This document shows positions 5,576 through 26,964 of a DNA stretch of 64,000 nucleotides, one piece after another. This DNA comes from Escherichia coli. Its GTDB lineage: Bacteria; Pseudomonadota; Gammaproteobacteria; Enterobacterales; Enterobacteriaceae. The notes under the pieces were generated by a model. It saw only the letters and a list, made by a program, of their open reading frames with translations, did not search any database and had not been told where the DNA came from. Position numbers and translations under genes: made by a program. Numbering within the stretch: position 1 is the stretch's first letter; every line of letters begins with the position of its first letter. The stretch lies in the NCBI RefSeq assembly GCF_024223415.1, contig NZ_CP100500.1. One strand, 5' to 3'.

Positions 5576-5600
5576 CCTGCCCTGTAATTTACGGGCAGGG
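5576..5600 (+). terminator. Stem-loop downstream of the receptor operon
   Basis: Inverted repeat CCTGCCC...GGGCAGG 10 bp after the stop at 5565. Confidence 0.4.
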
Positions 5601-5811
5601 TATATCAACCGGAAATAGCCTACTGACATCCATGTATAAAGCCACATAATTATTTTGTTGATGTATCTTACCTAATACGTAAGCGTAAAGCCAATGCCGT
5701 CTGTAACTCCTGATCCTTGCAGACTAAATGTAAGCGCCCTATCAGCGACGTCTTGTGAAAATTGTCCTGTCTGGCAACAATTGCGCCCATCTATATTGAT
5801 GGACACGAACG

Positions 5812-6486: not shown

Positions 6487-6830
6487 TAACGCTGCCGACC
6501 GGTACCAAAATCTGGATCATCGCTGGCATCACAGATATGCGTTGTGGCTTCAATGGCCTGGCTTCGAAGGTGCAGAACACGCTGAAAGATGACCCGTTCT
6601 CCGGGCATATCTTCGTCTTCCGGGGCCGCAGTGGCAAAATGGTGAAAATACTGTGGGCCGATCGTGATGGGTTATGCCTGTTCGCCAAACGCCTGGAACG
6701 GGGCCGCTTCATCTGGCCGGTGACCCGGGAAGGGAAAGTGCACCTGACGCCAGCTCAGTTATCCATGCTACTGGAGGGGATCGCGTGGCAACATCCCAAA
6801 CGGACAGAACGGCCTGGCATCCGGATATAA
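6483..6830 (+). CDS. tnpB: IS66-family TnpB
   Basis: 115 aa MITLPTGTKIWIIAGITDMRCGFNGL...; paralogous to the other TnpB copies. Confidence 0.9.
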   Translation: MITLPTGTKIWIIAGITDMRCGFNGLASKVQNTLKDDPFSGHIFVFRGRSGKMVKILWADRDGLCLFAKRLERGRFIWPVTREGKVHLTPAQLSMLLEGIAWQHPKRTERPGIRI

Positions 6831-6849
6831 CCCGTGATAAAACAAGGGA

Positions 6850-8454
6850 ATGAACAATGAACTCCCCGACGATATTGAGCTGCTTAAAGCCATGTTGCGT
6901 AAGCAACAGAGTCGGCTTCGCCAGTATACCTGTCAGGTCGCGGGCTATGAGCAGGAAATTGAACGGCTGAAAGCGCAACTCGACAGGTTGCGTCGTATGT
7001 TGTTCGGCCAGAGTTCAGAGAAAAAGCGTCATAAGCTTGAAAATCAGATCCGACAGGCAGAAAAACGACTGTCGGAACTGGAAAACCGGCTGAACACAGC
7101 CAGAAATCTTCTGGAAGATGCATCGTCAGTCACAGATTCACCTGACACCAGTCCCCCGTCAGAAAACCCGATCGCCAGTAAGCCTGAATCCCTGGGACGA
7201 AAATCTTCACGAAAACCGCTGCCGGCAGAACTTCCCCGGGAGACACATCGCCTTCTGCCTGCTGAAACCAGTTGCCCGGCCTGTGGAGGTGTTCTGAAAG
7301 AAATGGGGGAAACAATCTCAGAGCAACTGGATATCATTAATACCGCCTTTAAAGTTATTGAAACCATACGTCCCAAACGGGCCTGTAGCCGGTGCGACCA
7401 TATTGTGCAGGCGCCGGTTCCTTCAAAACCCATTGCACGCAGTTATGCCGGAGCGGGGCTTCTGGCTCATATCGTCACCGGGAAGTATGCAGACTATCTG
7501 CCGTTATACCGCCAGTCAGAAATATACCGTCGTCAGGGCGTGGAACTGAGCCGCGCCACGCTGGGGCGCTGGACCGGTGCCGTTGCTGAACTGCCGGAGC
7601 CGCTGTATGACGTGCTGCGCCAGTATGTGCTGATGCCCGGTAAAGTCCATGCGGATGATATCCCCGTTCCGGTCCAGGAGCCGGGCAGCGGTAAAACCCG
7701 GACAGCCCGGCTGTGGGTCTACGTCCGTGATGACCGCAATGCCGGTTCGGAAATGCCCCTGGCGGTCTGGTTCGCGTACAGTCCGGACCGGAAAGGCATA
7801 CATCCCTAGACTCATCTGGCCGGTTACAGCGGAGTGCTTCAGGCCGATGCTTACGGTGGCTACCGGGCGTTATACGAATCCGGCAGAATAACGGAAGCCG
7901 CGTGTATGGCTCATGCCCGGAGAAAAATCCACGATGTGCATGCAAGAGTGCCAACCGACATCACCACGGAAGCCCTGCGGCGTATCGGTGAACTGTATGT
8001 CATCGAGGCAGAAGTCCGGGGATGTTCAGCAGAACAGCGTCTGGCGGTAAGAAAAGCCAGAGCTGCGCCACTGATGCAGTCACTGTATGACTGGATACAG
8101 ACTCAGATGAAAACACTGTCGCGTCACTCGGATACGGCAAAAGCGTTCGCATACCTGCTGAAACAGTGGGATGGCCTGAACGTGTACTGCAGTAATGGCT
8201 GGGTGGAAATCGACAACAACATCGCAGAGAACGCCTTACGGGGAGTGGCCGTAGGCCGGAAAAACTGGCTCTTCGCGGGTTCCGACAGCGGTGGCGAACA
8301 TGCGGCGGTGTTGTACTCGCTGATCGGCACATGCCGTCTGAACAATGTGGAACCAGAAAAATGGCTGCGTTACGTCATTGAGCATATCCAGGACTGGCCG
8401 GCAAACCGGGTACGCGATCTGTTGCCCTGGAAAGTGGATCTGACCTCTCAGTAA
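6850..8454 (+). pseudogene. tnpC: IS66-family transposase TnpC interrupted by an in-frame TAG at 7807..7809
   Basis: ORFs 6850..7809 and 7834..8454 are in the same frame; the paralog at 44049..45587 reads ...[10 protein letters not shown]... where this copy reads ...KGIHP*THLA..., consistent with CAG to TAG. Confidence 0.85.
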
Positions 8455-8491
8455 ATATCAATACGGTTCTGGCGAGCCGCTTACGAACAAT

Positions 8492-10205
8492 GTGAATTAT
8501 GTTAATTATGTTTTCAGGCAGATGCTTCTCTGTCTGTTATTGTTCTGGCTGCCTGTATCCTGGGCTACCGAAAGTGGCTGGTTGCGTTCTCCTGAGAATG
8601 AGCATGCCAGTATACGGATACGTGCTGATTCCGTGGTCTCCGGGGAAACACGTGTTTTGCTGGACGTTAAACTGGATAACGGCTGGAAAACTTACTGGCG
8701 CTCACCCGGATAAGGGGGGATTGCACCGTCAGTCGACTGGAAAAGTGAAACACCGGAAGTGGAGTGGTACTGGCCTGGCCTTCACGTTTTGACGTGGCCG
8801 GCATTACCACTACGGGATATCACAACACAGTCACGTTTCCCGTGGTGTTACGTGGTATATCACCTGAGAGGATCACTGGCGTACTGACCCTGCCTGTCTG
8901 CAGCAATGTCTGTCTGCTGACCGATTACCCTTTCACTGTGAATGTTTCCACACAGGATACAACATTTGCACATGATTACGCACAGGCCATGGGGAAAATT
9001 CCGCTTTCCCATGGGGTAGCGGATTCCTTAAACGCGGTTTACCGACCTGGTGGACTGCTCATTACCGCAATACGGGCAGACGGCTGGTCATCTCCGGATA
9101 TTTATCTGGATTCTGTTGATTATGCAAGCTTCGGTAAGCCGCAGATGCAGATTGACGGCAAGAATCTGCTCGCATCTGTGCCGGTCACGGACAACTGGGG
9201 AGAGGGGGCGCCGGACCTGACTGGCCAACAAGTCACACTGGTTATTGAAAGCGGCGGCCTCGCTCAGGAAAGTACGCTTACGGTTGCGGCAGGTGCAACC
9301 AAAATAGCAGAGAATGTCTTACCTCTTTGGCAGGTCACTCTGATGGCATTAGCTGGTGGACTCATTCTTAACCTGATGCCCTGTGTATTACCGGTTCTGG
9401 GGATGAAGCTGGGCTCAGTTTTACTGGTGGAAGAGAAAAACCGTCAGCAGATTCGATGTCAGTTTCTGATGTCTGTAGCCGGGATCCTTACTTCCTTTAT
9501 GGCTCTGGCTACGTTAATGACCCTTCTGCGGCTGACAAACCGGGCTCTGGGGTGGGGGATCCAGTATCAGAGTCCCTGGTTTATTGTTCTGATGACGCTG
9601 GTTATGCTGATTTTTAGTGCCAGTCTGTTTGGCCTGTTTGAGTTCCGCCTGCCTTCCGGCCTCATGACTCGTCTGGCGACATTTGGTGGTAATGGAATGT
9701 CCGGACATTTCTGGCAGGGCGCTTTTGCGACTCTTCTGGCGACACCGTGTAGCGCCCCCTTCCTCGGTACGGCAGTGGCAGTGGCGCTGACGGCATCACT
9801 ACCCACTCTGTGGGGGATTTTCTTTGCACTGGGCGTGGGAATGAGTCTTCCGTGGCTGTTGGTGGCGTTGCGACCCGGGCTTGCGTTGTGTTTGCCCCAT
9901 CCGGGAGGATGGATGAATATTTTGCGTCGGGTGCTTGGCCTGATGATGCTGGGTTCTGCCTTCTGGCTGACAACACTGTTACTGCCACACTTGGGAGTAT
10001 CCTCACACAGTACAACGAAAGAACAGGTTGTCTGGCAGCCTCTCAGTGAACAGGCGATTAAGGAGGCGCTGGCTCAGCATAAGCGGGTATTTATCGATGT
10101 GACTGCAGACTGGTGTGTTACCTGTAAATTCAATAAATACAATGTGCTGCAAAAAGACAATGTGCAGAAGTCGCTGCAGGAGGCGGATGTTGTTGCACTG
10201 CGTGG
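8492..10205 (+). pseudogene. scsB: DsbD-family thiol:disulfide interchange protein (ScsB-like), decayed and 3'-truncated
   Basis: N-terminal ORF stops at TAA 8711..8713, frame resumes in 8764..; central transmembrane core and C-terminal thioredoxin motif WCVTCK present; reading frame runs into IS629 at 10206. Confidence 0.7.
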
Positions 10206-10259
10206 TGAACCGCCCCGGGAATCCTGGAGACTAAACTCCCTGAGAAAGAGGTAAACAGA

Positions 10260-10586
10260 ATGACTAAAAATACTCGTTTTTCCCCCGAAGTCCGTCAGAG
10301 GGCGATTCGTATGGTTCTGGAAAGTCAGGGCGAATATGACTCACAGTGGGCGGCAATTTGTTCCATTGCCCCAAAGATTGGCTGTACACCGGAGACTCTG
10401 CGTGTCTGGGTACGCCAGCATGAGCGGGATACCGGAGGCGGTGATGGCGGGCTCACCACCGCTGAACGTCAGCGTCTGAAAGAGCTGGAACGTGAAAATC
10501 GTGAACTGCGCCGCAGTAACGATATCCTTCGCCAGGCTTCCGCTTATTTTGCGAAGGCGGAGTTCGACCGCCTCTGGAAAAAGTGA
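10260..10586 (+). CDS. IS629 OrfA
   Basis: [59 protein letters not shown]... Confidence 0.9.
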
Positions 10587-11473
10587 TGCCACTGCTGGAT
10601 AAGCTGCGTAAGCTGTACGGGGTCGGACCGGTATGCAGTGAACTACATATTGCCCCGTCAACGTATTACCACTGTCAGCAACAGCAGCATCATCCTGATA
10701 AACGCAGCGCCCGTGCGCAGCGTGATGACTGGCTGAAGAAAGAGATACAGCGCGTATACGATGAAAATCACCAGGTGTACGGTGTGCGTAAAGTCTGGCG
10801 TCAGTTGTTACGGGAAGGTATCAGAGTGGCCAGATGCACTGTGACACGTCTTATGGCGGTTATGGGTTTTGCCGATGTTCTCCGGGGTAAAAAGGTCCGC
10901 ACTACCGTCAGCCGGAAAGCCGTTGCCGCAGGCGACCGCGTAAACCGTCAGTTTGTGGCAGAACGTCCTGACCAGTTGTGGGTGGCTGATTTTACTTACG
11001 TCAGCACATGGCAGGGGGTCGTCTATGTGGCGTTCATCATTGATGTGTTTGCCGGATACATCGTGGGGTGGCGGGTCTCATCGTCTATGGAAACGACATT
11101 CGTGCTGGATGCTCTGGAGCAGGCGTTATGGGCCCGTCGACCGTCCGGCACAGTCCATCACAGTGATAAAGGTTCTCAGTATGTATCGCTGGCCTACACA
11201 CAGCGGCTTAAGGAAGCCGGATTACTGGCATCAACAGGAAGTACTGGTGACTCGTATGACAACGCGATGGCGGAGAGCATCAATGGCCTTTACAAAGCGG
11301 AGGTAATACACCGTAAGAGCTGGAAAAACCGGACAGAAGTGGAGCTGGCCACACTCACGTGGGTGGACTGGTATAACAATCGACGATTGCTGGAAAGGCT
11401 GGGCCATATCCCACCGGCAGAAGCAGAAAAAGCTTATTATGCTTCCATCGGAAACGATGATCTGGCAGCCTGA
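10583..11473 (+). CDS. IS629 OrfB (DDE transposase)
   Basis: 296 aa with integrase catalytic core ...[13 protein letters not shown]...[10 protein letters not shown]...; overlaps OrfA as in IS3-family frameshift arrangement. Confidence 0.9.
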
Positions 11474-11523
11474 GTTCACAGATAAAACACTCTCCAGGAA
11501 ACCCGGGGCGGTTCACTCCGGAG

Positions 11524-11790
11524 GTGGCGGCTTTATCTGCCAGGGGAGAGAATGTGATGACGATTGCATACCGTTCCGGCTCATCTGATGAGGTGAGCCG
11601 GAAGCTGGCTCTCAGGAGGAACAGGTTCCCGGTGATCAATGATGCTGATGGCACAATATCCCGTTTATGGAGAATTAGAGTAACCCCGACGTTCGTAGTG
11701 ATATCGAAGGGGCGGGTAATCTCCACAACCAGCGGCTGGACCAGTTCCTGGGGGATGAAGCTACGACTGCGGTGGGCCACAATAGTCTGA
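11524..11790 (+). pseudogene. Possible thioredoxin-like (TlpA/ScsD-like) C-terminal fragment
   Basis: Translation ...FPVINDADGTISRLWRIRVTPTFVVISKGRV... resembles the C-terminal part of a TlpA-like thioredoxin fold; no N-terminal CxxC region present. Confidence 0.35.
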
Positions 11791-12119
11791 GCAGAAGACA
11801 GCCTTCTGAGAAGGAAACCTTTCAGAAGACGCCCTTACCAAAGTTGGTGATGGAAAGACTGTTGGCAGAGAGACAGATGGACATATCCGGTCGCGCTTAT
11901 GAGACAAGTCTGTGGTCACAGAGCCTGTTTATCACTCAGTGTAAATGTCTTTTCTCAGTCGGGGGCCGTCCAGACGATAACTGGGTCCGATAATAAAGCT
12001 ACATCGCCCATTTTTGTGATGCTGCCTGGATTACCGGCTGTACGGCCTTGTACTGAGAAACAGAAAAAGACTTCAGTCACCCGGCGAAAACGGTCCCTGT
12101 CCCCCCGTTACCTTATTCG

Positions 12120-12239
<120 letters not shown>

Positions 12240-12301
12240 TACCCATCTGAAACCCGAACAGTTGTCCATACGCTATAACGCATTTGCAAGGATGGGTAAT
12301 C

Positions 12302-12600
12302 ATGAGTCAGCCAAATCAGCTTTGTGTGGGTATTGATGTTTCTAAAACAACTCTTGACATTGCTACTGCTAACAACGAGTTTGCTCAGTTTACTTCTTGT
12401 AACGACACCGATGGTTTTTAGCTCATCATTGCTGAATTGAGAAATCATTCGGTGGCGCTGGTTTTGATGGAGGCTACTGGTGGGTTTGAAGCTGCTGTAG
12501 CCTGTTCACTTTAGGCTGAAGGTTTTGATATAGCTGTTATCAATCCCAGACAGGCCAGGAATTTCTCTCGTGCTAAAATCAGTTATTTCCCGAGGTTGGA
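12302..12600 (+). pseudogene. IS110-family transposase N-terminal fragment with internal stops
   Basis: MSQPNQLCVGIDVSKTTLDIA...[38 protein letters not shown]...; two stop codons and loss of similarity after about 12600. Confidence 0.6.
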
Positions 12601-12787
12601 TAGCCCTGTCCGATCAACATTTCCCAACATAGCTCACAAAACAGACACTTTATTTATTGACTTTGTTTTAATATGTGATAAATACGGAGAAGTGGTCTAA
12701 CAGGTTTAATGATTGGTCGGACAAGATGATAATAAATGGCATTTTATATCAACCAATTTTCATGTTTATACATAGAGGAGGGATTAT

Positions 12788-13777
12788 ATGAAAATTAGGT
12801 TATTTATCCATTCGTTATTTTATTCATCAGTTCTGGTGACTTTGCTTATCAATAGCGTAAATGCCGCAGAAAAAGTGACATTAAAATTGGCACACAACCT
12901 TGAACGCAGTCATGTTGTACACCAGACTTTTGAACATCTGGCAAACGAGGTAAAACAACTTTCTAATGGCAATATTGTCATTCGTATATACCCCAGTAGC
13001 CAGATGGGTAATGCGCGAGAAACTATGGAGTTGTTACAAAATGGCGCACTGGATATGACCAAAGGTTCCGCCAGTGATCTGGAGTCTTTTGATAATATTT
13101 ATGCTATCTATAATTTGCCGTTCTTATTTAAAGATCAGGCGCACTTCAACAAAGTGGTTTTTGGTGAAGTTGGTAAAGAAATTATGGACTCAACAAAAGA
13201 CAAAGGCTTTTTTGCTTTATCAGCTTATGTAGCGGGTACTCGCAGTTTCTATGCGAAAAAACCGATTACTAAGCCAGAAGATCTTAAAGGGCTGAAAATT
13301 CGTGTTCAGCCAAGCCCGACCACCATCAAAATGATTGAACTGATGGGGGGCTCACCCACTCCAATTTCATTTGGCGAAGTTTATACTGCGATGCAGCAAG
13401 GTGTAGTAGATGGCGCAGAAAATAACGTGCCTTCCTGGGTGCAGACTCGACATATCGAAATTGCCAAAGTCTTTTCTGAAGATGAACATGCCTCAATTCC
13501 TGACTTTTTGGTTATCTCCACCAAAACATGGAATAAATTAACCCCAGAACAGCAACAAATCCTCGAAACAGCGGCGAAGAAATCCGAAGCTTATCAACAA
13601 AAATTGTGGGAAAAAATTGACGCTGACACACGTGCTCAGGCGAAAGCTATGGGTGGTGAAATCGTTAAGGTTGATAAAGCCCCATTCCGTGCCGCAGTTC
13701 AACCTCTGTTTGACGACTTCAAAAAAGATCCAAAACAAGCTGCTTTGTTAGAGAAATTCGACAACGCTGCTCAATAA
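12788..13777 (+). CDS. TRAP transporter substrate-binding protein (DctP family)
   Basis: 329 aa, signal peptide, DctP-like sequence; first of three co-directional TRAP genes; substrate unknown. Confidence 0.85.
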   Translation: MKIRLFIHSLFYSSVLVTLLINSVNAAEKVTLKLAHNLERSHVVHQTFEHLANEVKQLSNGNIVIRIYPSSQMGNARETMELLQNGALDMTKGSASDLESFDNIYAIYNLPFLFKDQAHFNKVVFGEVGKEIMDSTKDKGFFALSAYVAGTRSFYAKKPITKPEDLKGLKIRVQPSPTTIKMIELMGGSPTPISFGEVYTAMQQGVVDGAENNVPSWVQTRHIEIAKVFSEDEHASIPDFLVISTKTWNKLTPEQQQILETAAKKSEAYQQKLWEKIDADTRAQAKAMGGEIVKVDKAPFRAAVQPLFDDFKKDPKQAALLEKFDNAAQ

Positions 13778-13783
13778 TATTTC

Positions 13784-13807
13784 GGGCCAGTCTCTGGCCC
13801 TGATTTT
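13784..13807 (+). terminator. Stem-loop followed by T-run after the TRAP binding-protein gene
   Basis: GGGCCAGTCTCTGGCCC followed by TGATTTT. Confidence 0.4.
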
Positions 13808-13812
13808 CCAGG

Positions 13813-14325
13813 ATGCTTACAATGATATTTAACCGCCTGAAACTTGCGGTAGACCGCGTCATTGCCGCGTTTTCTGTCGCCGTCATGCTTGCTCTGGTTG
13901 TATGCGTAGTCTGGCAAGTATTTAGCCGCTACGTACTTAACCAGCCAAGTACATTAACCGATGAGCTGGCACGCTTTTTGATGATCTGGGTAGGATTATT
14001 AGGTGCTGCATATACCGTCGGCGCGCAGAGACATCTCTCTATCGATTTATTTGCTCTCGCCCTGAATAAGCGCAAGCAATTACTTCTTAGTATAGTCATT
14101 AACATTCTCATTTTAGGTTTTGCCGGTTCGGTCATTGTGACTGGTGGCCTGAAATTAATTGATAAAACACTGGCAACATCACAGGTATCTGCCGCGATGC
14201 AAATACCGATGGGATACGTATATATCATTCTGCCATTAAGTGGATTGGTGATGATGTTTTATGCCTTGTGTTTTATTAATCAAAGCATTCAACAACTGAA
14301 ACAACCTGCGCAGGAGGCCAGTTAA
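13813..14325 (+). CDS. TRAP transporter small permease (DctQ family)
   Basis: 170 aa hydrophobic protein with four predicted TM segments between the DctP and DctM genes. Confidence 0.8.
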   Translation: MLTMIFNRLKLAVDRVIAAFSVAVMLALVVCVVWQVFSRYVLNQPSTLTDELARFLMIWVGLLGAAYTVGAQRHLSIDLFALALNKRKQLLLSIVINILILGFAGSVIVTGGLKLIDKTLATSQVSAAMQIPMGYVYIILPLSGLVMMFYALCFINQSIQQLKQPAQEAS

Positions 14326-15626
14326 TGGATAGTTATATCGCGCTTACACTATTTGGCTGTTTTTTTGTGCTGGTCTTTATTGGTGTGCCCATTTCGTTCT
14401 CAATCGGTATTGCGACTGTAGCTTCAATGCTGTTGATGTTTCCCTGGGATATCGCGGCAATCACTGTTTCGCAACGATTGGCTAATGGACTGGATAACTT
14501 TGCCCTGTTGGCAATCCCCTTTTTCATCTTTGCCGGAACACTGATGAACAGCGGCGGTATTGCGATACGTTTGATTAACCTCGCCCAGGTAATGGTTGGC
14601 CGCGTTCCTGGTTCGCTTGGTCATGTGAACGTCCTGGCGAATATGATGTTTGGTTCCATTTCTGGTTCAGCCGTTGCGGCAGCTGCTGCCGTTGGTGGCA
14701 CACTGAATCCCATTCAGACCAAAGAAGGTTATGATCCGGCATTTTCTACCGCTGTAAACGTCTCATCTTGTATTACTGGATTACTGATACCGCCCTCAAA
14801 CGTGTTAATTGTATTTTCCCTGACAGCTGGCGGCGTTTCTGTAGCATCGCTATTTATGGCGGGATATTTGCCAGGGATCTTAATGGGTCTCGCGGTAATG
14901 ATAGTCTGCGGCATTATTGCTAAACGCCGTGGCTACCCACTTTCAGAAAGAGCAACCTTTGCTCAGGCATGTAAAGCGTTTCTGGATGCCTTACCAAGTT
15001 TGCTTCTGGTGTTCATTGTAATGGGCGGCATTCTGGGCGGCATTTTTACCGCAACTGAAGCGTCAGCAATTGCCGTGGTCTACACATTTATTCTCTCGGT
15101 GCTGATTTACCGGGAAGTAAAATGGCGCGATTTACCCAAACTGATTCTGGAGTCGGTTGTTACCACTTCGATTGTATTACTGTTGATCGGTTTTTCCGTG
15201 GGCATGTCCTGGGCAATGACCAATGCTGATATTCCTTATATGATCAGCGACGCGTTGATGGGGATTTCTGATAACCCACTGGTCATATTGCTGCTGATTA
15301 ATATCGTCTTATTAATTGTCGGCATCTTTATGGACATGACACCGGCTGTACTAATCTTCACACCAATCTTCTTGCCGATTGCACAAGAGCTGGGAATGGA
15401 TCCGGTACATTTCGGTATTATGATGGTGGCCAACCTTTGTATTGGGCTGTTAACACCGCCGGTGGGTAGTGCGCTATTTGTTGGTTGTTCTATTTCAGGT
15501 GTGAAGATTCAACATTTGCTTAGACCATTGCTACCCTTTTATACAGCATTGCTAGTCGCATTGATGATGATCACTTACATTCCACAAATCTCTTTATTTA
15601 TCCCACAATTTCTAGGGCTGATGTAA
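14325..15626 (+). CDS. TRAP transporter large permease (DctM family)
   Basis: 433 aa polytopic membrane protein; start overlaps the dctQ stop. Confidence 0.85.
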   Translation: MDSYIALTLFGCFFVLVFIGVPISFSIGIATVASMLLMFPWDIAAITVSQRLANGLDNFALLAIPFFIFAGTLMNSGGIAIRLINLAQVMVGRVPGSLGHVNVLANMMFGSISGSAVAAAAAVGGTLNPIQTKEGYDPAFSTAVNVSSCITGLLIPPSNVLIVFSLTAGGVSVASLFMAGYLPGILMGLAVMIVCGIIAKRRGYPLSERATFAQACKAFLDALPSLLLVFIVMGGILGGIFTATEASAIAVVYTFILSVLIYREVKWRDLPKLILESVVTTSIVLLLIGFSVGMSWAMTNADIPYMISDALMGISDNPLVILLLINIVLLIVGIFMDMTPAVLIFTPIFLPIAQELGMDPVHFGIMMVANLCIGLLTPPVGSALFVGCSISGVKIQHLLRPLLPFYTALLVALMMITYIPQISLFIPQFLGLM

Positions 15627-15635
15627 ATAATTAAT

Positions 15636-15658
15636 AGCCGGACAATTTTTATTGTCCG
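15636..15658 (+). terminator. Rho-independent terminator-like hairpin after dctM
   Basis: CCGGACAA-TTTTTATT-GTCCGG followed by A/T-rich sequence. Confidence 0.5.
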
Positions 15659-15670
15659 GTAAAATTCATC

Positions 15671-15761
15671 GTAAGCGCTCCTTCTGTGCCGTCTTGTGGT
15701 GGTTGTCCTGTCTGGCAACAATCGCGTCCATCTATTGATGGACACGAACGATGAATTCTCA
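15671..15761 (+). mobile_element. IS66-family left-end fragment (about 90 bp), truncated by IS2
   Basis: Begins GTAAGCG and contains a 60-bp stretch nearly identical to 5758..5820 including the MNSQ start of the accessory ORF; similarity ends at the IS2 junction. Confidence 0.65.
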
Positions 15762-15775
15762 GACTGGATTTGCCC

Positions 15776-16681
15776 CTATATTTCCAGACACCTGTTATCA
15801 CTTAACCCATTACTGGCTTGCTGCCGTAGATATTCCCGTGGCGAGCGATAACCCAGTGCACTATGCGGATGCCATTCGTTATAATGCTCGAACGCCTCTG
15901 CAAGGTTCTTTGCTGCCGTTAACCCGTCTGGTTTAGGCATGATACTGATGTAGTCACGCTTTATCGTTTTCACGAAGCTCTCTGCTATGCCGTTACTCTC
16001 CGGACTCCGCACCGCCGTGCTCTTCGGTTCAAGCCCCAACATCCGGGCAAACTGCCGTGTTTCATTAGCCCGGTAGCATGAACCATTATCCGTCAGCCAC
16101 TCTACTGGAGACGCCGGAAGCTCGTTGCCGAAGCGGCGTTCCACCGCTCCTGGCATGACGTCCTGTACTGTTTCACTGTTGAAGCCGCCCGTAGTGACCG
16201 CCCAGTGCAGTGCCTCACGGTCACAGCAGTCCAGCGCGAACGTGACTCGCAGTTTTTCTCCGTTATCACAGCGGAACTCGAACCCGTCAGAGCACCATCG
16301 CTGATTACTTTCTTTCACAGCCACTCTGCCTGTATGTGCCCGTTTCGATGGCGGTACAGCAGGTTTTCGCTCAAGCAACAGCGCATTCTGGCGCATGATC
16401 CGGTAAACACGTTTGGCATTGATCGCAGGCATACCATCAAGTTCTGCCTGTCTGCGAAGCAGCGCCCATACCCGACGATAACCATACGTGGGCAGCTCTC
16501 CGATAACATGGTGTATACGGAGAAGCACATCCGTATCATCTGAGTGACGGCTGCGGCGACCATCTTTCCAGTCATCGGTTCGTCTGAGAATGACGTGCAA
16601 CTGCGCACGCGACACCCGGAGACAACGGCTGACTAAGCTTACTCCCCATCCCCGGGCAATAAGGGCGCGTGCGCTATCCAC
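15776..16681 (-). CDS. insD: IS2 transposase InsD (OrfB)
   Basis: 301 aa matching IS2 InsD. Confidence 0.92.
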
Positions 16682-17004
16682 TTTTTTGCCCGTCCATATT
16701 CAACGGCTTCTTTGAGGAGTTCATTTTCCATCGTTTTCTTGCCGAGCAGGCGCTGGAGTTCTTTAATCTGCTTCATGGCGGCAGCAAGTTCAGAGGCAGG
16801 AACAACCTGTTCTCCGGCGGCGACAGCAGTAAGACTTCCTTCCTGGTATTGCTTACGCCAGAGAAATAACTGGCTGGCTGCTACACCATGTTGCCGGGCA
16901 ACGAGGGAGACCGTCATCCCCGGTTCAAAGCTCTGCTGAACAATTGCGATCTTTTCCTGTGTGGTAAGCCGTCTGCGTTTCTCCGGTCCTAAGACATCAA
17001 TCAT
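16639..17004 (-). CDS. insC: IS2 InsC (OrfA)
   Basis: [53 protein letters not shown]... Confidence 0.9.
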
Positions 17005-17096
17005 CTGCTCTCCAATGACTAGTCTAAAAACTAGTATTAAGACTATCACTTATTTAAGTGATATTGGTTGTCTGGAGATTCAGGGGGCCAGTCTAT

Positions 17097-17420
17097 TCGG
17101 CAGCACTGTTGCCCTGTATCGAACAGGCCAGAGAGGATGTCCGTACCCTGCGTCATCTGCAGCTTCTGCACCAGAACCGGTGAATATCACTCACCACGCT
17201 TCATTACCCTGACGCCAGCCTGAATACGGCTGGCGTTTTCGTTTATAAACCAAAAGGAAAAATGATGATGTCAGATACCACACTCTCCCGCCCGGAGGTG
17301 GTCAGCGGGCATACGGACGTTATCTATTCCACCTCAGTCTGCCACATTCTGGCTGTACGAAAGAGTACACTGTTGCCAATCGACACAATTATCCGGCATC
17401 AAGTGAGCGATATCAGTTAA
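17097..17420 (+). pseudogene. Truncated second copy of a CP4-like island segment (3' end of a small yeeW-like ORF plus 5' end of a DUF4942 gene)
   Basis: Homologous to the reverse complement of about 58900..59085: ...[21 protein letters not shown] and MMMSDTTLSRPEVVSGHTDVIYST... versus MSDITVSRPETLNGHTDVICST... at 58934; abuts the IS2 end. Confidence 0.7.
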
Positions 17421-17820
17421 CCGATATAGATGGGGAAGATGCTTTTATCCGGATTGGATCTATCGCGATGGTGCGAGTACCACTTGATGCAATGGAGCCT
17501 GTCGAGGCAGATGACGAGTAACAGAGCTCGGTATCTCAATCAGGACCTGATTGTCCTGGTTCGATGCCGAAAACCAGTGATTTTTCGTGTTGGTATCTGT
17601 GTTGGTATAGGATGGTGTTGTTTATTATTAACAATTTTAAATCATGAGGTTAAATCGCATGTTTGAGTCAGGCCTTCGCATCAATATCAAAACAATCAAT
17701 AAATAAGTCCTTTAACCTAGCCACGACCAATCATTGATCAACCACGAAATCCTCTCCGAAACACAGTCCCAATCCCTAAACCCTACGCTCAACATCGAAA
17801 CCCGCTTATCACCATCCCCC

Positions 17821-18690
17821 TCATCCCCTGAACACCTCCCGCCGGTGCCACGCCACAAACCCCTCCTGGGGATAGCATTCTTTCCCCATCGGCAAGGTAA
17901 TCGGCTTACCATCAAAATCCCAGAACAACCTGCCAACGATGCCTCCGCCGTTCACCGCCGGCGAAACCTGGATGCGCATATCCTCATCCAGACCAATGGA
18001 TCCTTTATCAAAATCCTTATGGTGAATCGCGCAGAGCGCCAGGCCGTTAGGGATTTCGCAGGGGCCGCCGTGCTGCTTCCACTTGATATGGGCCGCTTCC
18101 AGGGCGACGGAGGTATTATCATGGCGCATATTGAAGCCGCAGATAGCGCACTCATAGTTATAGGCGCGCAGCACCTGCTGGCGAAAATGCGGGTCGCGCT
18201 CTTTGCGGATCTGCAGCAGATCAAACCCCATCTCTTCAGCCAGTTCTTCCTGAATACTCTCCGGAAAGTGCGCCTCAAGGATCTGATGGGCGAGGGTATT
18301 GATCAGCTTCTTATTTCTGTTAAGTAACGCAAAATGCTGCTCATCAAAGCCGCCGGCGACGTGGCAGAGCTCCAGCTCTTTGCCGGGCGGCTGTCGGCTG
18401 CCCTGGGTTGAGCACTGTTCGCTGTTGTGTAGCTCCCAGAAGCCGTCGCCTTTCAGGCGCCAGAAGGGCATGTCCGGCCGGTACTGGCGGCGCTGCGGGC
18501 CAAAGCGTTCCAGCAGGCTATGCAGCTCATCACGTATCTCCGAGGCGTAGTCGAACATCCGCGCATGGCCGCGCTGGTATTGCGAGAGGACGTACAGCAG
18601 CAATAGTGGTTTATGCGGCGCACGCTGTTCGCCTTTGCGCCAGATGGTGATGTTCTCGATCGCGTGTTGCAGGGTCGTGCTGGAGGGCAT
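17821..18690 (-). CDS. HNH endonuclease with an N-terminal putative modified-DNA-binding domain (candidate type IV restriction enzyme)
   Basis: 290 aa from the ATG at 18690; C-terminal HNH motif ...YNYECAICGFNMRHDNTSVALEAAHIKWKQHGGPCEIPNGLALCAIHHKDFDKG...; N-terminal about 170 aa (...APHKPLLLLYVLSQYQRG...FWRLKGDGFWEL...) recalled as resembling sulfur-binding-domain-HNH proteins. Confidence 0.6.
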   Translation of the reverse strand: MPSSTTLQHAIENITIWRKGEQRAPHKPLLLLYVLSQYQRGHARMFDYASEIRDELHSLLERFGPQRRQYRPDMPFWRLKGDGFWELHNSEQCSTQGSRQPPGKELELCHVAGGFDEQHFALLNRNKKLINTLAHQILEAHFPESIQEELAEEMGFDLLQIRKERDPHFRQQVLRAYNYECAICGFNMRHDNTSVALEAAHIKWKQHGGPCEIPNGLALCAIHHKDFDKGSIGLDEDMRIQVSPAVNGGGIVGRLFWDFDGKPITLPMGKECYPQEGFVAWHRREVFRG

Positions 18691-18869
18691 AGCGTTACAT
18701 TGGCAGCTAAATAAATGCGATGATGCTCGCAAAATCCTTGCCGATCAACCTACCAGATGCGGCGATTCTACGTGGATCGCGATTTAATTATCACTGCCAG
18801 TTATTTGTTCGAAAAGACCATAGCTTTCTATTTATACTCAAGCTTCGCGCCATCAGATAGCTATGTCTT

Positions 18870-19508
18870 ATGAAAAAACTACCGGACCATTTATCCAGGG
18901 AATGCATCATCGCCGCCATTCGCGCTTACGATGCAGGCGTTGCGCATCAGTTTAAAAGCGCGCGTCTGTATGAGATCGAGTTTGAGGGGCGTCGGTATCC
19001 TTCAAAAGCCATCGTCGGGTTAGCGGCCACGCTTGCGACGGGAACGGAATTTACCCCGGCGGATTTCAGCGGGGGGATTAAATCAAAATGCGTGCGTCTG
19101 TTACTGGAGCAAGGATTTACGATCGCGTCGCAGGGCGCTGGCGATGACGAGGTTGCGCTTTTCCCCGATGAGGGGCAGACGACCATGGAGTACGTGGAAG
19201 GGGCGGCGTTGCAGGTGGTGGTCAATCGCTATGAGCGCGACCGTCAGGCTCGTCAGGCGGCGCTTCGCCTGCATGGCTGCCAGTGTCAGGTATGCGGTCT
19301 GGATATGGCCAGCCGCTATGGCGATATCGGCCAGGGCTTTATCCATATCCACCATCTCATCCCGCTGGCCGGGATAAAGCAGGACTACCGCCTGAACCCT
19401 GAAACCGATCTGATCCCGGTATGTCCCAACTGCCATGCGATGCTGCACCGGCGAGATCCGCCGTTTACCCCCGAAGAGCTGAAGGCCCGGCTGCGCCCCA
19501 CAGACTGA
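18870..19508 (+). CDS. HNH endonuclease with a distinct N-terminal domain of unknown function
   Basis: 212 aa; C-terminal zinc-finger HNH ...CQCQVCGLDMASRYGDIGQGFIHIHHLIPLAG...PVCPNCHAMLH...; divergent from 17821..18690 across a 179-bp intergenic region. Confidence 0.6.
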   Translation: MKKLPDHLSRECIIAAIRAYDAGVAHQFKSARLYEIEFEGRRYPSKAIVGLAATLATGTEFTPADFSGGIKSKCVRLLLEQGFTIASQGAGDDEVALFPDEGQTTMEYVEGAALQVVVNRYERDRQARQAALRLHGCQCQVCGLDMASRYGDIGQGFIHIHHLIPLAGIKQDYRLNPETDLIPVCPNCHAMLHRRDPPFTPEELKARLRPTD

Positions 19509-19552
19509 CATCCGACAGCGCTCGCTTTAATTACATCAAACACACCACAAAC

Positions 19553-19579
19553 CCCACGCTACCTTACCGGTAGCGTGGG
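19553..19579. terminator. Bidirectional stem-loop between convergent genes
   Basis: CCCACGCTACC-TTAC-CGGTAGCGTGGG between the stop at 19508 and the minus-strand stop at 19591. Confidence 0.5.
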
Positions 19580-19590
19580 CCCACTCTCTT

Positions 19591-21270
19591 TTACTTATCC
19601 CGCGTCTCGCCAGCCTCCCAGCTGTAGCTGCCATCGGCCGCTAAGCTATCGCCCAGCTCCTGATACTCGAACTGATAAAACTCAGCCTGGGTGCCGTACC
19701 CGGCGTAGTCTACCGCCGCCAGGCCGACGAACGCCCCGGTAAAGAACCCGCCGTAGCTCTGCAACACATAGTCATCGGACAGCACCGCGGCATCCAGCTG
19801 GACCGGGATCTCGGTGAACGTCACGCCATCGAAGCTGTATTCATAGCTGTAGGTCTGCTTGCGGACTTTGGTCCGGAACCAGACGTATTCCACGCCGTCC
19901 GGCACCTTGATGGCGTTATCTTTCAGGTACGACGTGTATTTCCCGCGGTTATTTTCGCCGACTTCGATGACCTTGCCGTTAATTTCATTCCAGGTCAGGA
20001 AGACGAAGCTCCAGTGGCGGTCGTTATAGTAATTCGTTAACCCGGCCATCTGCTGGTAGCTGAAGGGCTCGAATTTCACCTTCACCGCGGCGTCAAAATA
20101 GAAGGCCTGCCAGCGGCGGGCAATCAGCGACAGATCATGCGTATTGGCTAACGAGCCCTGGCCGATTAAGGTTAATTTGCCGTTACCGGTGGTGCCCATT
20201 TTGGCCGTAAACGGCACCCGCAGGGTATTCCAGTTCGGGTCGAGGGCTGGCGACGTAAAGTCATCCTGCTGGCTATTATCGCTGGCGCTTTCGGTGAAGA
20301 TGGCGTCTTTCGGTCCTTCGACGAAGGTTTTCCCGCCGTGACCGCCTTCAATACGCGGCCAGCCCTCGTCATCCCAGTACACTTTCTGGATCGCGGTTTC
20401 CCGGCCGAGGGTTGACCAGCCGCGCGGGTCGTAGATGGATTCCCCCGGGCGATTCCACGGCCGGGCGCAGAGCGAGGCGTAATACCATTCGCCTTCCGGG
20501 GTGGAGACCAGCGCGCCATGGCCCTGTTTCTGGATGTAGCTGTCCGGGGTGTCGACGTTGGTTAAGAACACGTCGCCCGGCTCGGTTTCAAAGCTGTCGG
20601 CCTCGAGGGTTTTCGACCGCGCCACCACCTCCTGGTGGGTAAACACGGTGCCGCCCTGGGCGGCAAACAGGTAGTAGTAGCCGTTCAGTTTATAGAGGTG
20701 CGGCCCCTCGACCAGCGCTACGGCGGTGCCGCGGTAGATGGTGCGCGCGGTTTCCGGCATTAACTTCAGCGTGTTGGTATCCAGCTCCGTTAAGGTAATG
20801 CCATCGAAGGGGTGATGGTACTCCCGGTGATCCCAGGTTTGCTGGACGATATATTTCCGGCCATCGTCGTCATGGAACAGCGAGGCGTCAAACCCGACTC
20901 CGTTCAGCTTGATCGGGTCGCTCCACGGGCCCCGAATATCCTTCGCGGTGGTCAGGTAGTTGGTCATGTCTTTGAAGGCGCCTTCGGTGACCTTCACATC
21001 GGTATACACCAACCAGAATTGCCCGTCGGCCCAGGAGAGCGCCGGCGCCCAAATGCCGCCGGAGGAGGGGTTGCCCTTCATGTCCAGCAGGGTGGTGGTG
21101 GAGAGCGGCGAAGGCAGCAGGTTCCAGTTTTTCAGGTCTTTCGACTCATGTAAACGCACGCCCGGAAACCACTCAAACGTCGAGTTGGCAATATAGTACG
21201 TATCCTCGACGCGAATAATACTGGGGTCGGCATTAAAGCCGCGTAATATCGGGTTTTGAATAAGTGACAT
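19591..21270 (-). CDS. xynB: Glycoside hydrolase family 43 beta-xylosidase (XynB-like)
   Basis: 559 aa; N-terminal GH43 five-bladed propeller motifs (...FNADPSIIRVEDTYYIANSTFEWFPGV...) plus C-terminal beta-sandwich; high GC. Confidence 0.85.
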   Translation of the reverse strand: MSLIQNPILRGFNADPSIIRVEDTYYIANSTFEWFPGVRLHESKDLKNWNLLPSPLSTTTLLDMKGNPSSGGIWAPALSWADGQFWLVYTDVKVTEGAFKDMTNYLTTAKDIRGPWSDPIKLNGVGFDASLFHDDDGRKYIVQQTWDHREYHHPFDGITLTELDTNTLKLMPETARTIYRGTAVALVEGPHLYKLNGYYYLFAAQGGTVFTHQEVVARSKTLEADSFETEPGDVFLTNVDTPDSYIQKQGHGALVSTPEGEWYYASLCARPWNRPGESIYDPRGWSTLGRETAIQKVYWDDEGWPRIEGGHGGKTFVEGPKDAIFTESASDNSQQDDFTSPALDPNWNTLRVPFTAKMGTTGNGKLTLIGQGSLANTHDLSLIARRWQAFYFDAAVKVKFEPFSYQQMAGLTNYYNDRHWSFVFLTWNEINGKVIEVGENNRGKYTSYLKDNAIKVPDGVEYVWFRTKVRKQTYSYEYSFDGVTFTEIPVQLDAAVLSDDYVLQSYGGFFTGAFVGLAAVDYAGYGTQAEFYQFEYQELGDSLAADGSYSWEAGETRDK

Positions 21271-21328
21271 TTCATTACACCTTTTAAAATGGAAAGTGAC
21301 GAATCGGTCTGATTTATAATTTTTTTAA

Positions 21329-22783
21329 CTACACGCGGATCTCATCCAGCTGACGGTTGATGTCGGTAACATGTTTATCGGAGATCGGATAAACCTGGAT
21401 AATCACCATCGAAATAGCGGCCAGCGCGATCGGGATCCACACCGCGGTCATAATGATCCCGTCGATGGCGCTGGCGCTCTGCACGGCGCCGCTTTCATTA
21501 AAGCCATACACCGCCAGCAGCCACAGCGGGATCGCGCCGCCGATGGTGAAGCCGATCTTGAAGAAGAGTCCCATAATGGCATTGATAATGGCGGCATTGC
21601 GTTTGCCAGATTTTAATTCGCCGTACGCGATGACTTCCGGTACCAGCGCCCACATAAAGCCGGTGGCGGAGGTTAAGCCCCACTGTTTAATAAAGGTGGC
21701 GATGTAGGCCAGCCACAGGGCGTCGTGCATCCCTTCGCGGGACCAGACGTAGGTCAGCAGTTCGCCGACGATAAACATGGCGAGGAACAGATGGAAGAAG
21801 CCTTTTTTACCAAAGATTTTTTTCAGTTTCGGCCAGAAAATCGGGAAGGCGATGCCGGGAATAGACGCGACGAGACCCACCGCGCCCATCCATTCGGAGT
21901 GGCCGACGACGTACTGGTTGAAGAAGCCGTTAACAGTGTTCATGAAGAACATGAAGGTAAAGGCCAGCATAAAGAACATGCCCAGAATAACCAGCGGGCG
22001 GTTATGTCGGAGCTCGTGGAAAAGGTCGGTGGTTTTGACGTTGGCGGTCTGCTCGGCGGTCGCGACAACGCGTTCTTTGGTGAATTTATAACAGATAAAC
22101 AGAGCCACCGCGCCGATGATCATATAGATGGCGTACACGCCAAACCAGGCGTAATTTGCCGACGGATCGGCATAATTCCCCAGATTCAGCTCAAGGCCAA
22201 AAAAGCCGGTGTCTTTCAGGCTGCGATCTTTCGGCGCCGCCATCTGCACAAACATCGGGAACAGGGTATAGACCAGCAGGTTGGCGCTGTTGGCCAGCAT
22301 CATGCGGGTACTGGTCAGTTTATCGATCGATTCCGGGTCGCGGGTCAGCGACGCATTCAGCGAGCCATAGGGAATATTGACTAAGGAATAAACCAGGTCC
22401 AGCGCCAGATAAATAATAAAGGCGAAAGCCACCGAACCTTTCACTCCGGGGATGGGCGCGAACAGTAATGCCGAGAGGATCACCAGCGGCACGCCGGCTC
22501 GTAACAGCCACGGACGATATTTCCCTGCCTTCGAGGTTCGTTTATCCACGTAGGTGCCGACCATCGGATCCCAAAACACGTTAATTATGCGGACAAAAAG
22601 AAAAATAAAGCCTGCCGTTGCCGTGCTGATGGTATTTACCGTCAGCATATGCAAAGCCAGAAAACCCCCAATTGTGCCGAAAACCAGGTTTTGCGCAAAG
22701 TCGCCCATGCCATAACCAATTCGTTCTCCACGGGTTAATTTATGATATTCATCATGCCGACTGTGCATTATGTTTTTACTCAT
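21329..22783 (-). CDS. Glycoside-pentoside-hexuronide (GPH) family cation symporter, xyloside transporter-like
   Basis: Polytopic membrane protein with GPH-family N-terminus (...RIGYGMGDFAQNLVFGTIGGF...); start chosen at MSKNIM; co-directional with the xylosidase. Confidence 0.8.
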   Translation of the reverse strand: MSKNIMHSRHDEYHKLTRGERIGYGMGDFAQNLVFGTIGGFLALHMLTVNTISTATAGFIFLFVRIINVFWDPMVGTYVDKRTSKAGKYRPWLLRAGVPLVILSALLFAPIPGVKGSVAFAFIIYLALDLVYSLVNIPYGSLNASLTRDPESIDKLTSTRMMLANSANLLVYTLFPMFVQMAAPKDRSLKDTGFFGLELNLGNYADPSANYAWFGVYAIYMIIGAVALFICYKFTKERVVATAEQTANVKTTDLFHELRHNRPLVILGMFFMLAFTFMFFMNTVNGFFNQYVVGHSEWMGAVGLVASIPGIAFPIFWPKLKKIFGKKGFFHLFLAMFIVGELLTYVWSREGMHDALWLAYIATFIKQWGLTSATGFMWALVPEVIAYGELKSGKRNAAIINAIMGLFFKIGFTIGGAIPLWLLAVYGFNESGAVQSASAIDGIIMTAVWIPIALAAISMVIIQVYPISDKHVTDINRQLDEIRV

Positions 22784-23194
22784 TCTAAGCAGACTCCGGT
22801 TTGTTTTGTGTAGGTGAAACACTTTCTGACACAGTTGACATGGAAGAATCTATTACGTTTTTAAATTAAGTAATTATGTTTTTTTACTTCTGTGATCCTC
22901 GAAGCAAAGGCCTGTATCACCTGCGTTGAGCCGCCATCCGCCGCTAATTTTTTGGCAGACAGGCAATGTGACAAAACCGGCATTTTAATTCGCTATGCCC
23001 ACCTGAATTCCCCAGGAAGTGTACTCTATACGCGCGCGAAGCGAGATATTTAAAATAGTTTTATTTGCGAGATGGCTCACATTTGAGCATTTTCTCAATC
23101 GCTGAGTGAAATAACGTAATTGAGCAACCGACGATGAGAATACACGATGTGTCACAGTTGTTAATTTTCGGCTTCCTCAATTTCGGAGTTCATC

Positions 23195-24514
<1,320 letters not shown>

Positions 24515-24545: not shown

Positions 24546-24844
24546 ATTCCGCCGTGTGCCCGCTGCCGGGAAATAGCGTTTATTTGTTCGTGTTGTATTT
24601 ATGCTGTCTGTGCCGAAAGGCTATCTGTTTGACTGTCTATAGAGGAACAATCCGCCGCGCGGATGGTTCTGCCATTGTGCCACCTTTTTAATATCAGTGA
24701 GGGAGGGCGAGTAGCGATAATTGTGTAATGCCTCTGTGACCGTACAAAATAAAAAATAATTTGTTCTGATGATAGCGACATATTCTGTCAGCTCAGAATA
24801 GGCTGGTTATTGTCTGAATAAAATTAACCTATATTGAGAAACTC

Positions 24845-25156
24845 ATGACAATGATAAAAAAACTTCCATTAACCATGGCGGTTATCGCCGCGTTTTTTCC
24901 GCTTACCTCTGTAATGGCGCAAGAATTTACTCAGGAACAGATCGACGCCATCGTCGCCAAAGCCGTTGATAAAGCGCTGGCCGAGCAAATTGACGCCTTG
25001 AAAGCCGCCGCCCGTGAATGCGGTCCGTTACCCGATGAGCCGTTTATTCAGATGGCGTTTCTTTCTCTGCCAGTGATCCCCGCGCTGAAACTAACCAGTC
25101 AGGGGCTATTTGATGGCGAGAAGTTTGCCTTCACCACGCTGGAAGTCACGGAATGA
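24845..25156 (+). pseudogene. 5' fragment of a LamB/ScrY-type porin gene fused to unrelated sequence
   Basis: First about 120 bp encode signal peptide plus [22 protein letters not shown], the same as the N-terminus of the porin at 30214; the rest has no porin similarity. Confidence 0.6.
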
Positions 25157-25352
25157 AAAAAAGACCGTATTAGCTGATTTACGGAAAATATGTACTCCAC
25201 AAGCGTCAATATCAGACGAGGCCTGGGAAAAGATAATGTTGTCTGATGAAAGTAATCAGCAGCACATCCGTGAGGCTATTGTGGCGATGGAACGCAATAA
25301 CCAGAACAATTACTGGGAAGCGTTAGGCAAGGTTGAATGCCCGGATATGTAG

Positions 25353-25376
25353 ACGTGAAGCTGCAGCTTCACGTCA
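25353..25376. terminator. Perfect palindrome downstream of the LacI-family regulator gene
   Basis: GACGTGAAGCTGCAGCTTCACGTC 13 bp beyond the regulator stop at 25389. Confidence 0.5.
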
Positions 25377-25388
25377 TACATTTAGCAC

Positions 25389-26345: not shown

Positions 26346-26636
26346 CATTCTCCCCTGACAGAGCGGCCCTGGCTCCCACAATCCTGAATTCCTGTTGGCT
26401 TAAATATTAGCCGTTCGCAGTATAACTGTTTCCGTTTTCTAATGGAAACCGATTTTCCATGGCATCTCAAAACTGAGCTAATAATGATAAAAATGTGAAC
26501 AGAGTCGAAATAATAACGCGACTTTATAGCGAAATCTGATAGCCGTCACAGTTTATGTTTCCATGAATGGAAACCGGTTTCCAAATGATATCAAATCAAT
26601 TGCGAAATAGATTTTTACATTCAGAGGATGTGTCAG

Positions 26637-26951: not shown

Positions 26952-26964
26952 GAAAGGTGTCATT

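Follow-up and report, generated by a model that had tools for sequence, protein, structure and literature searches.

An IS2 copy at the joint between an IS66-family end and a CP4-like tail in an Escherichia coli genomic island, probably formed by recombination between two IS2 elements

Introduction

An insertion sequence that has simply landed in a chromosome should carry the same short repeat on either side, and a copy of IS2 in a genomic island of extraintestinal/avian-type E. coli raises the question of how its two flanks came together. The inverted repeats of IS2 are imperfect, with an IRL of 42 bp starting TAGACTGG and an IRR of 41 bp ending CAAATCCA, and insertion makes a 5-bp direct repeat (PMC3299598). 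Recombination between IS copies, in turn, is the main source of large E. coli rearrangements (PMC4173774, PMC5009759). In the 64-kb stretch of DNA analysed here, which we call the window, IS2 lies between the end of an IS66-family element and the tail of a CP4-like element, and a preliminary description had read it as the joint of an IS-mediated deletion or inversion.

Results and Discussion

We found a structurally complete IS2 with two unlike flanks:

15765-17095, minus strand: complete IS2, 1331 bp (terminal sequences; NCBIfam IS2 TnpA and TnpB)
15765-15805: IRR of IS2, tip at 15765, TGGATTTGCCCC
17054-17095: IRL of IS2, tip at 17095, ...GGCCAGTCTA
16639-17004, minus strand: orfA (InsC / TnpA, 121 aa; NCBIfam NF006928; Pfam HTH_Tnp_1)
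15776-16681, minus strand: orfB (InsD / TnpB, 301 aa; NCBIfam NF006918; Pfam rve, rve_3)
15760-15764: CAGAC, the 5 bp adjoining the IRR tip; part of the IS66 sequence and presumed target of an IS2 copy in the IS66 end
17096-17100: TTCGG, the 5 bp adjoining the IRL tip; native DUF957 sequence and presumed target of an IS2 copy in a CP4-like element

The element shares with IS2 of the IS3 family its length of 1331 bp, its asymmetric ends (IRL TAGACTGG..., IRR ...GCAAATCCA) and the A6G overlap of orfA and orfB, a slippery site at 16681-16688 with both frames intact. Its proteins score as IS2 TnpA (NF006928, 272 bits against a cut-off of 229, matching residues 16-136 of a 136-aa mechanical ORF that reaches 17049) and IS2 TnpB (NF006918, 705.6 bits against a cut-off of 597, over the full length, 1-301/301), and near-identical genomes carry the same element annotated as an IS3/IS2 family transposase with programmed frameshift. 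It is the only full IS2 within the window, appears intact and might still be able to move; the joint that it forms is without evident function of its own.

Unlike IS2 after an ordinary insertion, the window copy is not bordered by the 5-bp direct repeat. A search for a 5-bp target duplication at its flanks found none, CAGAC facing TTCGG, in agreement with the preliminary description. Since perfect 5-bp duplications flank all three simple IS2 insertions that served as controls in relatives (GCTAC at yeeW::IS2 in KMi006, ATTCC at DUF4198::IS2 in GF60, and TGGCG at the IS66-borne IS2 in GPEC1258), the missing repeat is meaningful, and its likely cause is that the two flanks stem from two separate insertion events. 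An extra IRL spacer base (T17096) left by an IS2 minicircle was considered and rejected, as T17096 is native to the DUF957 gene of KMi006.

The flank on the IRR side is a remnant of an IS66-family element:

15671-15764, plus strand: IS66-family left-end fragment, 94 bp, starting GTAAGCG and cut off by the IS2 IRR
5730-5825, plus strand: left end of a full paralogous IS66-family element (tnpA/B/C annotated in ECCNB12-2)

On its left the fragment is preceded by an island-borne dctPQM TRAP transporter block (12788-15626), whose 3' end faces it, and similarity to the core-chromosome dctPQM (TRAP transporter) locus breaks off 8 bp before the fragment begins. It is 84.4% identical to 5730-5825 (E 1.9e-22), where NCBIfam places an IS66 TnpA at 5812-6486, and 98.9% identical to an IS66-type left end in strain GPEC1258, which continues AACAAAAGATATC. 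Both the GTAAGCG terminus, common to IS66-family elements of the ISEc8 / ISEc23 / ISCro1 type, and homology to the ends of elements bearing tnpA-tnpB-tnpC are present, with 84-99% identity to left ends. Those reference ends lie upstream of annotated tnpA-tnpB-tnpC genes, whereas the window retains the first 94 bp only, with no genes and no right end; tnpA, tnpB, tnpC, the right end and an 8-bp target duplication are all absent from the 94-bp fragment. Because only these 94 bp are left, we regard the piece as a remnant and not as an element. An IS66 left end that stops at the IS2 boundary had been described before, with a length of 90 bp and a stretch of about 60 bp nearly identical to the full element; the fragment does adjoin the IRR, and 59 of its last 62 bases are identical to the full-element left end with one 2-bp indel, the length alone requiring correction to 94 bp.

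Upon gathering left-junction contexts by look-up of the identical DctM protein, we obtained three kinds. In five assemblies (L013/15/16/18/19) the IS66 end next to the TRAP block runs on without interruption (..CTCAGAC AACAAAAGATATC..), which corresponds to the state before IS2 arrived. The window's exact left junction, ..GAATTCTCAGAC followed directly by TGGATTTGCCCC, occurs in L017 (GCA_053151435.1, an independent contig of 5.3 Mb), where that IS2 lineage has its IRL side joined to DNA matching window 52705 onward and not to the CP4 tail. In four assemblies including ECCNB12-2 we found a derived state with the IS66 end stopping 5 bp earlier. The TRAP block with an uninterrupted IS66 end had no match among complete E. 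coli genomes and was later located in other assemblies; the exact left-junction 41-mer had no match in metagenome or species-representative collections.

The flank on the IRL side is the tail of a CP4-like element, with a paralog elsewhere in the window:

17096-17683, plus strand: CP4-like tail fragment (truncated DUF957, truncated DUF4942, partial HTH gene); homology stops at 17683
17097-17183, plus strand: DUF957 3' remnant of a second CP4-like element, 28 codons and stop (from the translation)
17262-17420, plus strand: DUF4942-family N-terminal remnant, 52 codons; the Pfam domain itself lies outside the remnant
58804-59125, minus strand: paralog of this tail within the complete resident CP4-like element (DUF957 3' part and DUF4942 5' part)

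An intergenic stretch separates the DUF957 remnant, ending at 17183, from the DUF4942-family remnant, starting at 17262. The former has 70% amino acid identity to residues 52-81 of an 81-aa paralog at 59031-59276, and the latter 50% identity to residues 1-49 of a 288-aa DUF4942 protein (58068-58934), the same truncation being annotated in H8 and KMi006. Pfam and NCBIfam gave no match on the DUF957 and DUF4942 fragments or on the 81-aa paralog; Pfam assigns DUF4942 and DUF5983 to ORFs neighbouring 58804-59125. The fragment had earlier been labelled yeeW, a name that does not apply: by homology and by the RefSeq annotation of identical DNA it comprises the 3' end of DUF957 and the 5' end of DUF4942 (N-terminus of the protein), the upstream yeeU/yeeV/yeeW module is absent, and yeeW (DUF5983) has no counterpart beside IS2, occurring within the window only in the resident element (59243-59731). 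The inverted paralogy to 58900-59085 reported for this flank is real, its extent being longer and the match weaker than described, with 17095-17398 aligning in inverted orientation to 59125-58804 at 74.5% identity over 322 aligned columns (E 3e-57).

The claim that at least two CP4-like elements contributed to the region also held. The 17096-17683 tail shares 95% identity with KMi006 L002 9825-10412, and 17097-17382 is 100% identical at the nucleotide level to UTI89, 536 and many others, within an intact DUF957 gene, as compared with only 74.5% to the resident element at 58804-64000. Gene order and sequence of the tail are those of CP4-44 / CP4-57-type E. coli elements (yeeU-yeeV-yeeW-DUF957-DUF4942), of which, however, the window keeps the last ~590 bp only, toxin-antitoxin genes and yeeW being gone. 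The intact DUF957 gene of KMi006 reads ...ACAGG TTCGG CAGC..., and since TTCGG lies inside intact DUF957 genes, it would represent the native target of an IS2 insertion into the CP4-like element, whose part upstream of the insertion site has apparently since been lost.

The IRL followed by TTCGGCAGC and the next 7.9 kb, at 99.96% identity, is common to nine complete E. coli genomes (H8, YZMc17-1, ET479, EC17CM12, EC0585, GF43, ES1, I2 and ST38; hereafter H8-type), with 3 differing sites in 7889 bp downstream of IS2. The right junction thus shared is probably old. On the left, IS2 in these nine genomes adjoins an intergenic site next to a ProQ/FinO gene, with ..GGGAATTCAG immediately before it, and IS-free genomes continue the same site with GGTGTCATC. 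As this left flank differs and is not a target duplicate, the H8-type IS2 also lacks a duplication.

Each window junction hence occurs separately elsewhere, with a different partner flank, and the window is best described as an L017-type left junction combined with an H8-type right junction, a combination that, among 5,426 complete E. coli genomes, is found in the window only; no single independent assembly has both junctions on one IS2. With both junctions present elsewhere with other partners and unbroken flanks in existence, the earlier view of this IS2 as a rearrangement joint and not a simple insertion is borne out, and the comparison with related genomes that had been proposed to reconstruct the event located each junction and both unbroken targets.

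The alleles of IS2 itself point to two parents. Compared with the H8-type copy, the window IS2 has 11 differing sites, all within alignment columns 55-930, and at nine of these (388, 389, 568, 598, 645, 682, 724, 927 and 930) it agrees with an L017 copy. Columns 1119-1204, by contrast, contain 8 sites that set both L017 copies apart from H8, and the window equals H8 at 8/8. The 930-1017 bp on the IRR side of the window IS2 therefore match the IS66-linked copy, and on the IRL side the final 213 bp or more agree with the tail-linked copy, a site pattern that places the switch between column 930-1017 and column 1119. Divergence from H8 is 22-fold higher in IS2 (11/1331) than in the adjoining DNA (3/7889; Fisher p = 1.3e-7). 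The mosaic has two blemishes, a 7-site patch at columns 778-803 of the L017 copy that is missing from the window, and column 55, which matches neither parent. IS2 copies undergo gene conversion, and repeat polishing in assemblies can blur alleles. Apart from that 7-site patch and the one odd site, we found what marks a hybrid IS, namely flanks that occur with other partners and a mosaic with one switch, and the window IS2 appears to be a two-parent mosaic. An origin of this chimera involving a second TRAP locus (that of GF60, ECCNB12-2 and TUM9803) was rejected, as the IS2 at that locus differs at its IRR end and at 47 sites overall.

A common IRL flank with a different IRR side, as found upon comparing the window with the nine H8-type genomes, is also compatible with a transposase reaction, in which a single IS2 in DUF957 would have made a 'sloppy' strand transfer from its IRR into the upstream IS66 left end, deleting the intervening DNA (an IS-adjacent deletion), with the allele differences arising later by gene conversion. 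In the first step of IS2 transposition no end but the IRR serves as donor (PMC3299598), IS3-family deletions have been explained by sloppy strand transfer in a published model (bioRxiv 10.1101/2023.06.07.543989), and the window contains no second IS2, nor do the searched genomes contain a reciprocal junction. We nevertheless consider this route unlikely. In L017 the same IS66/IRR junction has another IRL flank, so that the IRL side varies too; the two-parent alleles follow the linkage to the flanks, and the strand-transfer route would need an extra conversion tract of at least 876 bp that happened to match the IS66-linked copy; and the flank has no significant resemblance to the ends of IS2. 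On this last point, targeted insertion or a pseudo-end was examined by comparing flanks with IS2 ends and rejected, the window left flank giving nothing and the best match, that of the H8 left flank to IRL, reaching p ~0.006 before correction for 28 tests.

A mosaic of this kind would equally result from a misjoin, if an assembler had switched between two real IS2 copies within the 1.3-kb repeat and thereby joined flanks that are not adjacent. The uniqueness of the junction combination among the 5,426 complete genomes and the unmatched left-junction 41-mer in the metagenome and species-representative collections would fit such an artefact, which we nonetheless regard as highly improbable. Another assembly (GCA_900482235.1) has a contig, L020, that matches window 16269-23690 at 100% identity and thus carries on one piece of DNA the tail and 827 bp of IS2, including the switch interval, with the IS66-linked alleles. 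The left junction is confirmed by L017, GF60 provides an independent link of the upstream block with the CP4 tail, its deletion scar lying at the IRL boundary, and long-read data are implied by the several other IS copies that the window runs across. The assembly error that the preliminary description had allowed for is accordingly unlikely, with the left junction in L017 and the right one in nine complete genomes and L020.

We therefore favour, at a probability of roughly 60%, the reading that the IS2 at 15765-17095 is a hybrid produced by homologous recombination between two separate IS2 copies. An IS66-family element would initially have come to lie just downstream of the island-borne dctPQM (TRAP) block, the state observed in other assemblies. 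One IS2 would then have inserted into the IS66 left end after nt 94, at the target CAGAC and with its IRR facing the TRAP genes, yielding the left junction observed in the window and L017, and another would have inserted into DUF957 near the end of the CP4-like element, at the target TTCGG, yielding the IRL junction observed in the window and nine other genomes. A crossover inside IS2, which the allele mosaic would place between nt ~930-1017 and nt 1118 from the IRR tip, would finally have fused the TRAP/IS66 side to the CP4-tail side, leaving one IS2 between two different half-targets. Recombination between IS2 copies is favoured because the two junctions are found apart, both targets survive unbroken elsewhere, the IS2 is mosaic and L017 shows the same process, and it is most likely that IS2-IS2 homologous recombination, and not a transposase reaction, made the joint. 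Of the earlier proposal of an IS-mediated deletion or inversion, the rearrangement thus stands, with homologous recombination a likelier agent than transposase.

The crossover may have deleted the DNA between direct copies, inverted it between inverted ones, or replaced it by incoming DNA. An inversion would give the same flank combination as a deletion, with the reciprocal joint (DUF957 5' part, IS2, then CAGAC and the rest of IS66) lying outside the 64-kb window. This island family has exactly such an IS2-IS2 inversion in L017, where the two repeats of a 5-bp duplication (AATGC, window 5693-5697) lie apart, one at each of two inverted IS2 copies that enclose an inverted block, a pattern that we take as the signature of insertion followed by IS2-IS2 recombination; in ECCNB12-2-type genomes, moreover, the adjacent 13.2-kb block is inverted. 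We judge an inversion at the window joint quite improbable nonetheless, given the single full IS2 in the window, the lack of a reciprocal junction in all collections searched, and the CP4 tail of GF60 and the H8-type genomes, which has no remainder of that element nearby. The parental or reciprocal junctions, truncated DUF957-TTCGG followed by IRR and IRL followed by CAGAC-AACAAAAG, were found in none of the 5,426 complete E. coli genomes and in neither the metagenome nor the species-representative collections, synthetic junction queries matching only nearby, non-identical IS2 insertions. The absence of parental junctions from samples such as these is no proof that they do not exist. The parental insertions would be marked by the 30-mers ACAGGTTCGG joined to TGGATTTGCC... 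and ...CCAGTCTA joined to CAGACAACAAAAG.

The finding is real and known in kind, an ordinary, well-known route of island reshuffling, and implies no new element, gene or mechanism, as IS2, IS66 remnants, CP4-like elements and IS recombination are all textbook matter. As in described IS-IS recombination rearrangements in E. coli (PMC4173774; PMC5009759), a hybrid IS sits at the joint, the half-targets do not match and intervening DNA is lost or inverted; the textbook signature, a split target duplication, is seen in the relative L017. The present case differs in that it concerns the genomic island of a natural isolate and not a laboratory line, and in that the partner junctions of the window are kept in no sampled genome. 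It is a clean case from nature of IS2 copies serving as portable homology by which the modules of an extraintestinal/avian-type E. coli island are shuffled, these modules being the TRAP transporter, an iron-receptor block, the CP4-like tail, and defence and sugar-use genes. The joint matters little beyond bookkeeping, and the series of states (intact targets, hybrid IS2, split target duplication and a scar of IS2 loss) could aid strain typing and assembly checks.

The scar is found in GF60, whose island is 99.9% identical to the window and in which 5630 directly adjoins 17097-17099 through a 2-bp microhomology (TC) that lies 1-3 bp beyond the IRL tip, with the loss of IS2 and 10.1 kb of adjoining DNA, ~11.5 kb in all. 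We rejected this IS2-free joint (5630 to 17097) as the ancestral state, since the window and H8 keep one more native base and since the joint is at odds with a target duplication and has the look of a deletion scar. The sequence comparison implies that the GF60 joint derives from a window-like ancestor, and the scar fits IS loss during copy-out replication. In the IEE / ISApl1 model (bioRxiv 10.1101/2023.06.07.543989), IS loss occurs through strand switching at microhomology in copy-out, and the GF60 joint has the corresponding microhomology at a position where IS2 chemistry leaves a free 3'-OH; it differs in that the deletion is far larger than the IS, and the state concerned is a derived one found in a relative and not in the window itself.

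Close relatives also differ in where the IS66 end is truncated. GF60, ECCNB12-2 and TUM9803 have a second, paralogous TRAP locus at which another IS2 cuts off the IS66 end 11 bp earlier, and in ECCNB12-2 and three other assemblies the block 2555-15759 (13.2 kb) is inverted, with a GTGCG/CGCAC 5-bp duplication in inverted orientation and loss of CAGAC, the 5 bp next to IRR. The truncation points in close relatives fall within 11 bp, at nt 83 (IS2 joint), 89 (inversion joint) and 94 (IS2 joint). One reading of these breakpoints, which we hold to be very improbable, has an undescribed IS2 reaction favour the site where the IS66 left end meets the IRR of IS2: the transposase would use the IRR and a nick in the flank 5 bp away, the spacing of its two catalytic centres, and one concerted step could yield the ECCNB12-2-type inversion. 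A one-ended IRR attack as the sole cause of that inversion was rejected, as on paper it gives a hairpin or a dicentric and not a simple inversion. The conventional route to the same product needs three steps, namely insertion, IS2-IS2 inversion and near-precise excision. These can account for the only mildly unusual points, the clustering of IS66-end breakpoints within 11 bp and the 5-bp geometry seen in the inversion of the ECCNB12-2 type.

Rearrangements around the IS2 copy in related genomes

In four assemblies, ECCNB12-2 (a related E. coli genome) and three others, a 13.2-kb block corresponding to window 2555-15759 is inverted. GTGCG is present at both joints as an inverted duplicate, and the sequence lost is exactly CAGAC, the 5 bp adjoining IS2. 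Both a one-step and a three-step origin of the inversion are possible. The related genome GF60 lacks window 5631-17096, that is, IS2 together with 10.1 kb of adjoining DNA (~11.5 kb in total), and its deletion joint shows a 2-bp TC microhomology that lies 1-3 bp beyond the tip of the IS2 IRL. The GF60 deletion looks like IS loss through strand switching.

Joints of the rearrangements in the window and in the loci of relatives
Window 2550-2554 and 15759-15764; locus L003 3140-3200 and 15030-15095: joints of the 13.2-kb inversion
Window 5629-5630 / 17097-17098; locus L004 16930-16990: GF60 deletion joint

The full IS66 element begins at 5730 and is directly preceded, at window 5679-5729, by a second IS66-type end of 51 bp (GTAAGCGTAAAGCC...). 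This 51-bp end carries an IS2 insertion in L017, a 5.3-Mb contig (GCA_053151435.1), with the target AATGC corresponding to window 5693-5697. We also observed a 1310-bp IS3-family element at window 10206-11515, inside a DsbD-family pseudogene; in ECCNB12-2 the same site is free of it. In L017, the left end of this element adjoins window 5799, so that 5800-10205 is missing there, and this absence is an IS-adjacent deletion.

TRAP transporter loci

In the window, an IS110 fragment and the IS66 end border the dctPQM TRAP block (12746-15663). The block is a captured paralog (96.3%) of a locus that ~1,460 complete E. coli genomes carry between hemW and yggM. A second TRAP locus occurs in GF60 (locus L005 9112-10528), as well as in ECCNB12-2 and the related genome TUM9803. 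There, the IS66 end is cut 11 bp earlier (..ACGATG|IS2), and the IS2 copy, which differs at 47 of the 1331 sites (3.5%), has no duplication in its flanks, CGATG and CTCCC. About 5.5 kb further on, the sequence of the second TRAP locus equals the window from 34010 onward, with 99.7-99.8% identity for GF60 and ECCNB12-2, in both of which an ABC transporter operon instead precedes this sequence. In the window, a further module boundary lies at ~34007-34010.

Genes following the module boundary
Window 34010 onward: glycerophosphodiesterase, ROK regulator, AbgT transporter, S6 autotransporter peptidase

Neighboring features

Directly downstream of the CP4-like tail (the remnant of a second CP4-like element to the right of IS2), window 17821-19508 encodes two neighboring endonucleases, one an HNH enzyme and the other a phosphorothioate-DNA-dependent restriction enzyme (NF045808, 438 bits). 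Further along, two porin-gene segments (24835-24984 and 30204-30350; 77% identical) enclose 24985-30203, a stretch of 5.2 kb that neither GF60 nor H8, another related genome, contains. An 83-bp miniature relic resembling IS2 is found at 36882-36964, with no duplication in its flanks (GCGGT and AGGAA), and it consists of an exact copy of the first 22 bp of the IS2 IRL, followed by ~20 bp of other sequence and a diverged IS2 IRR.
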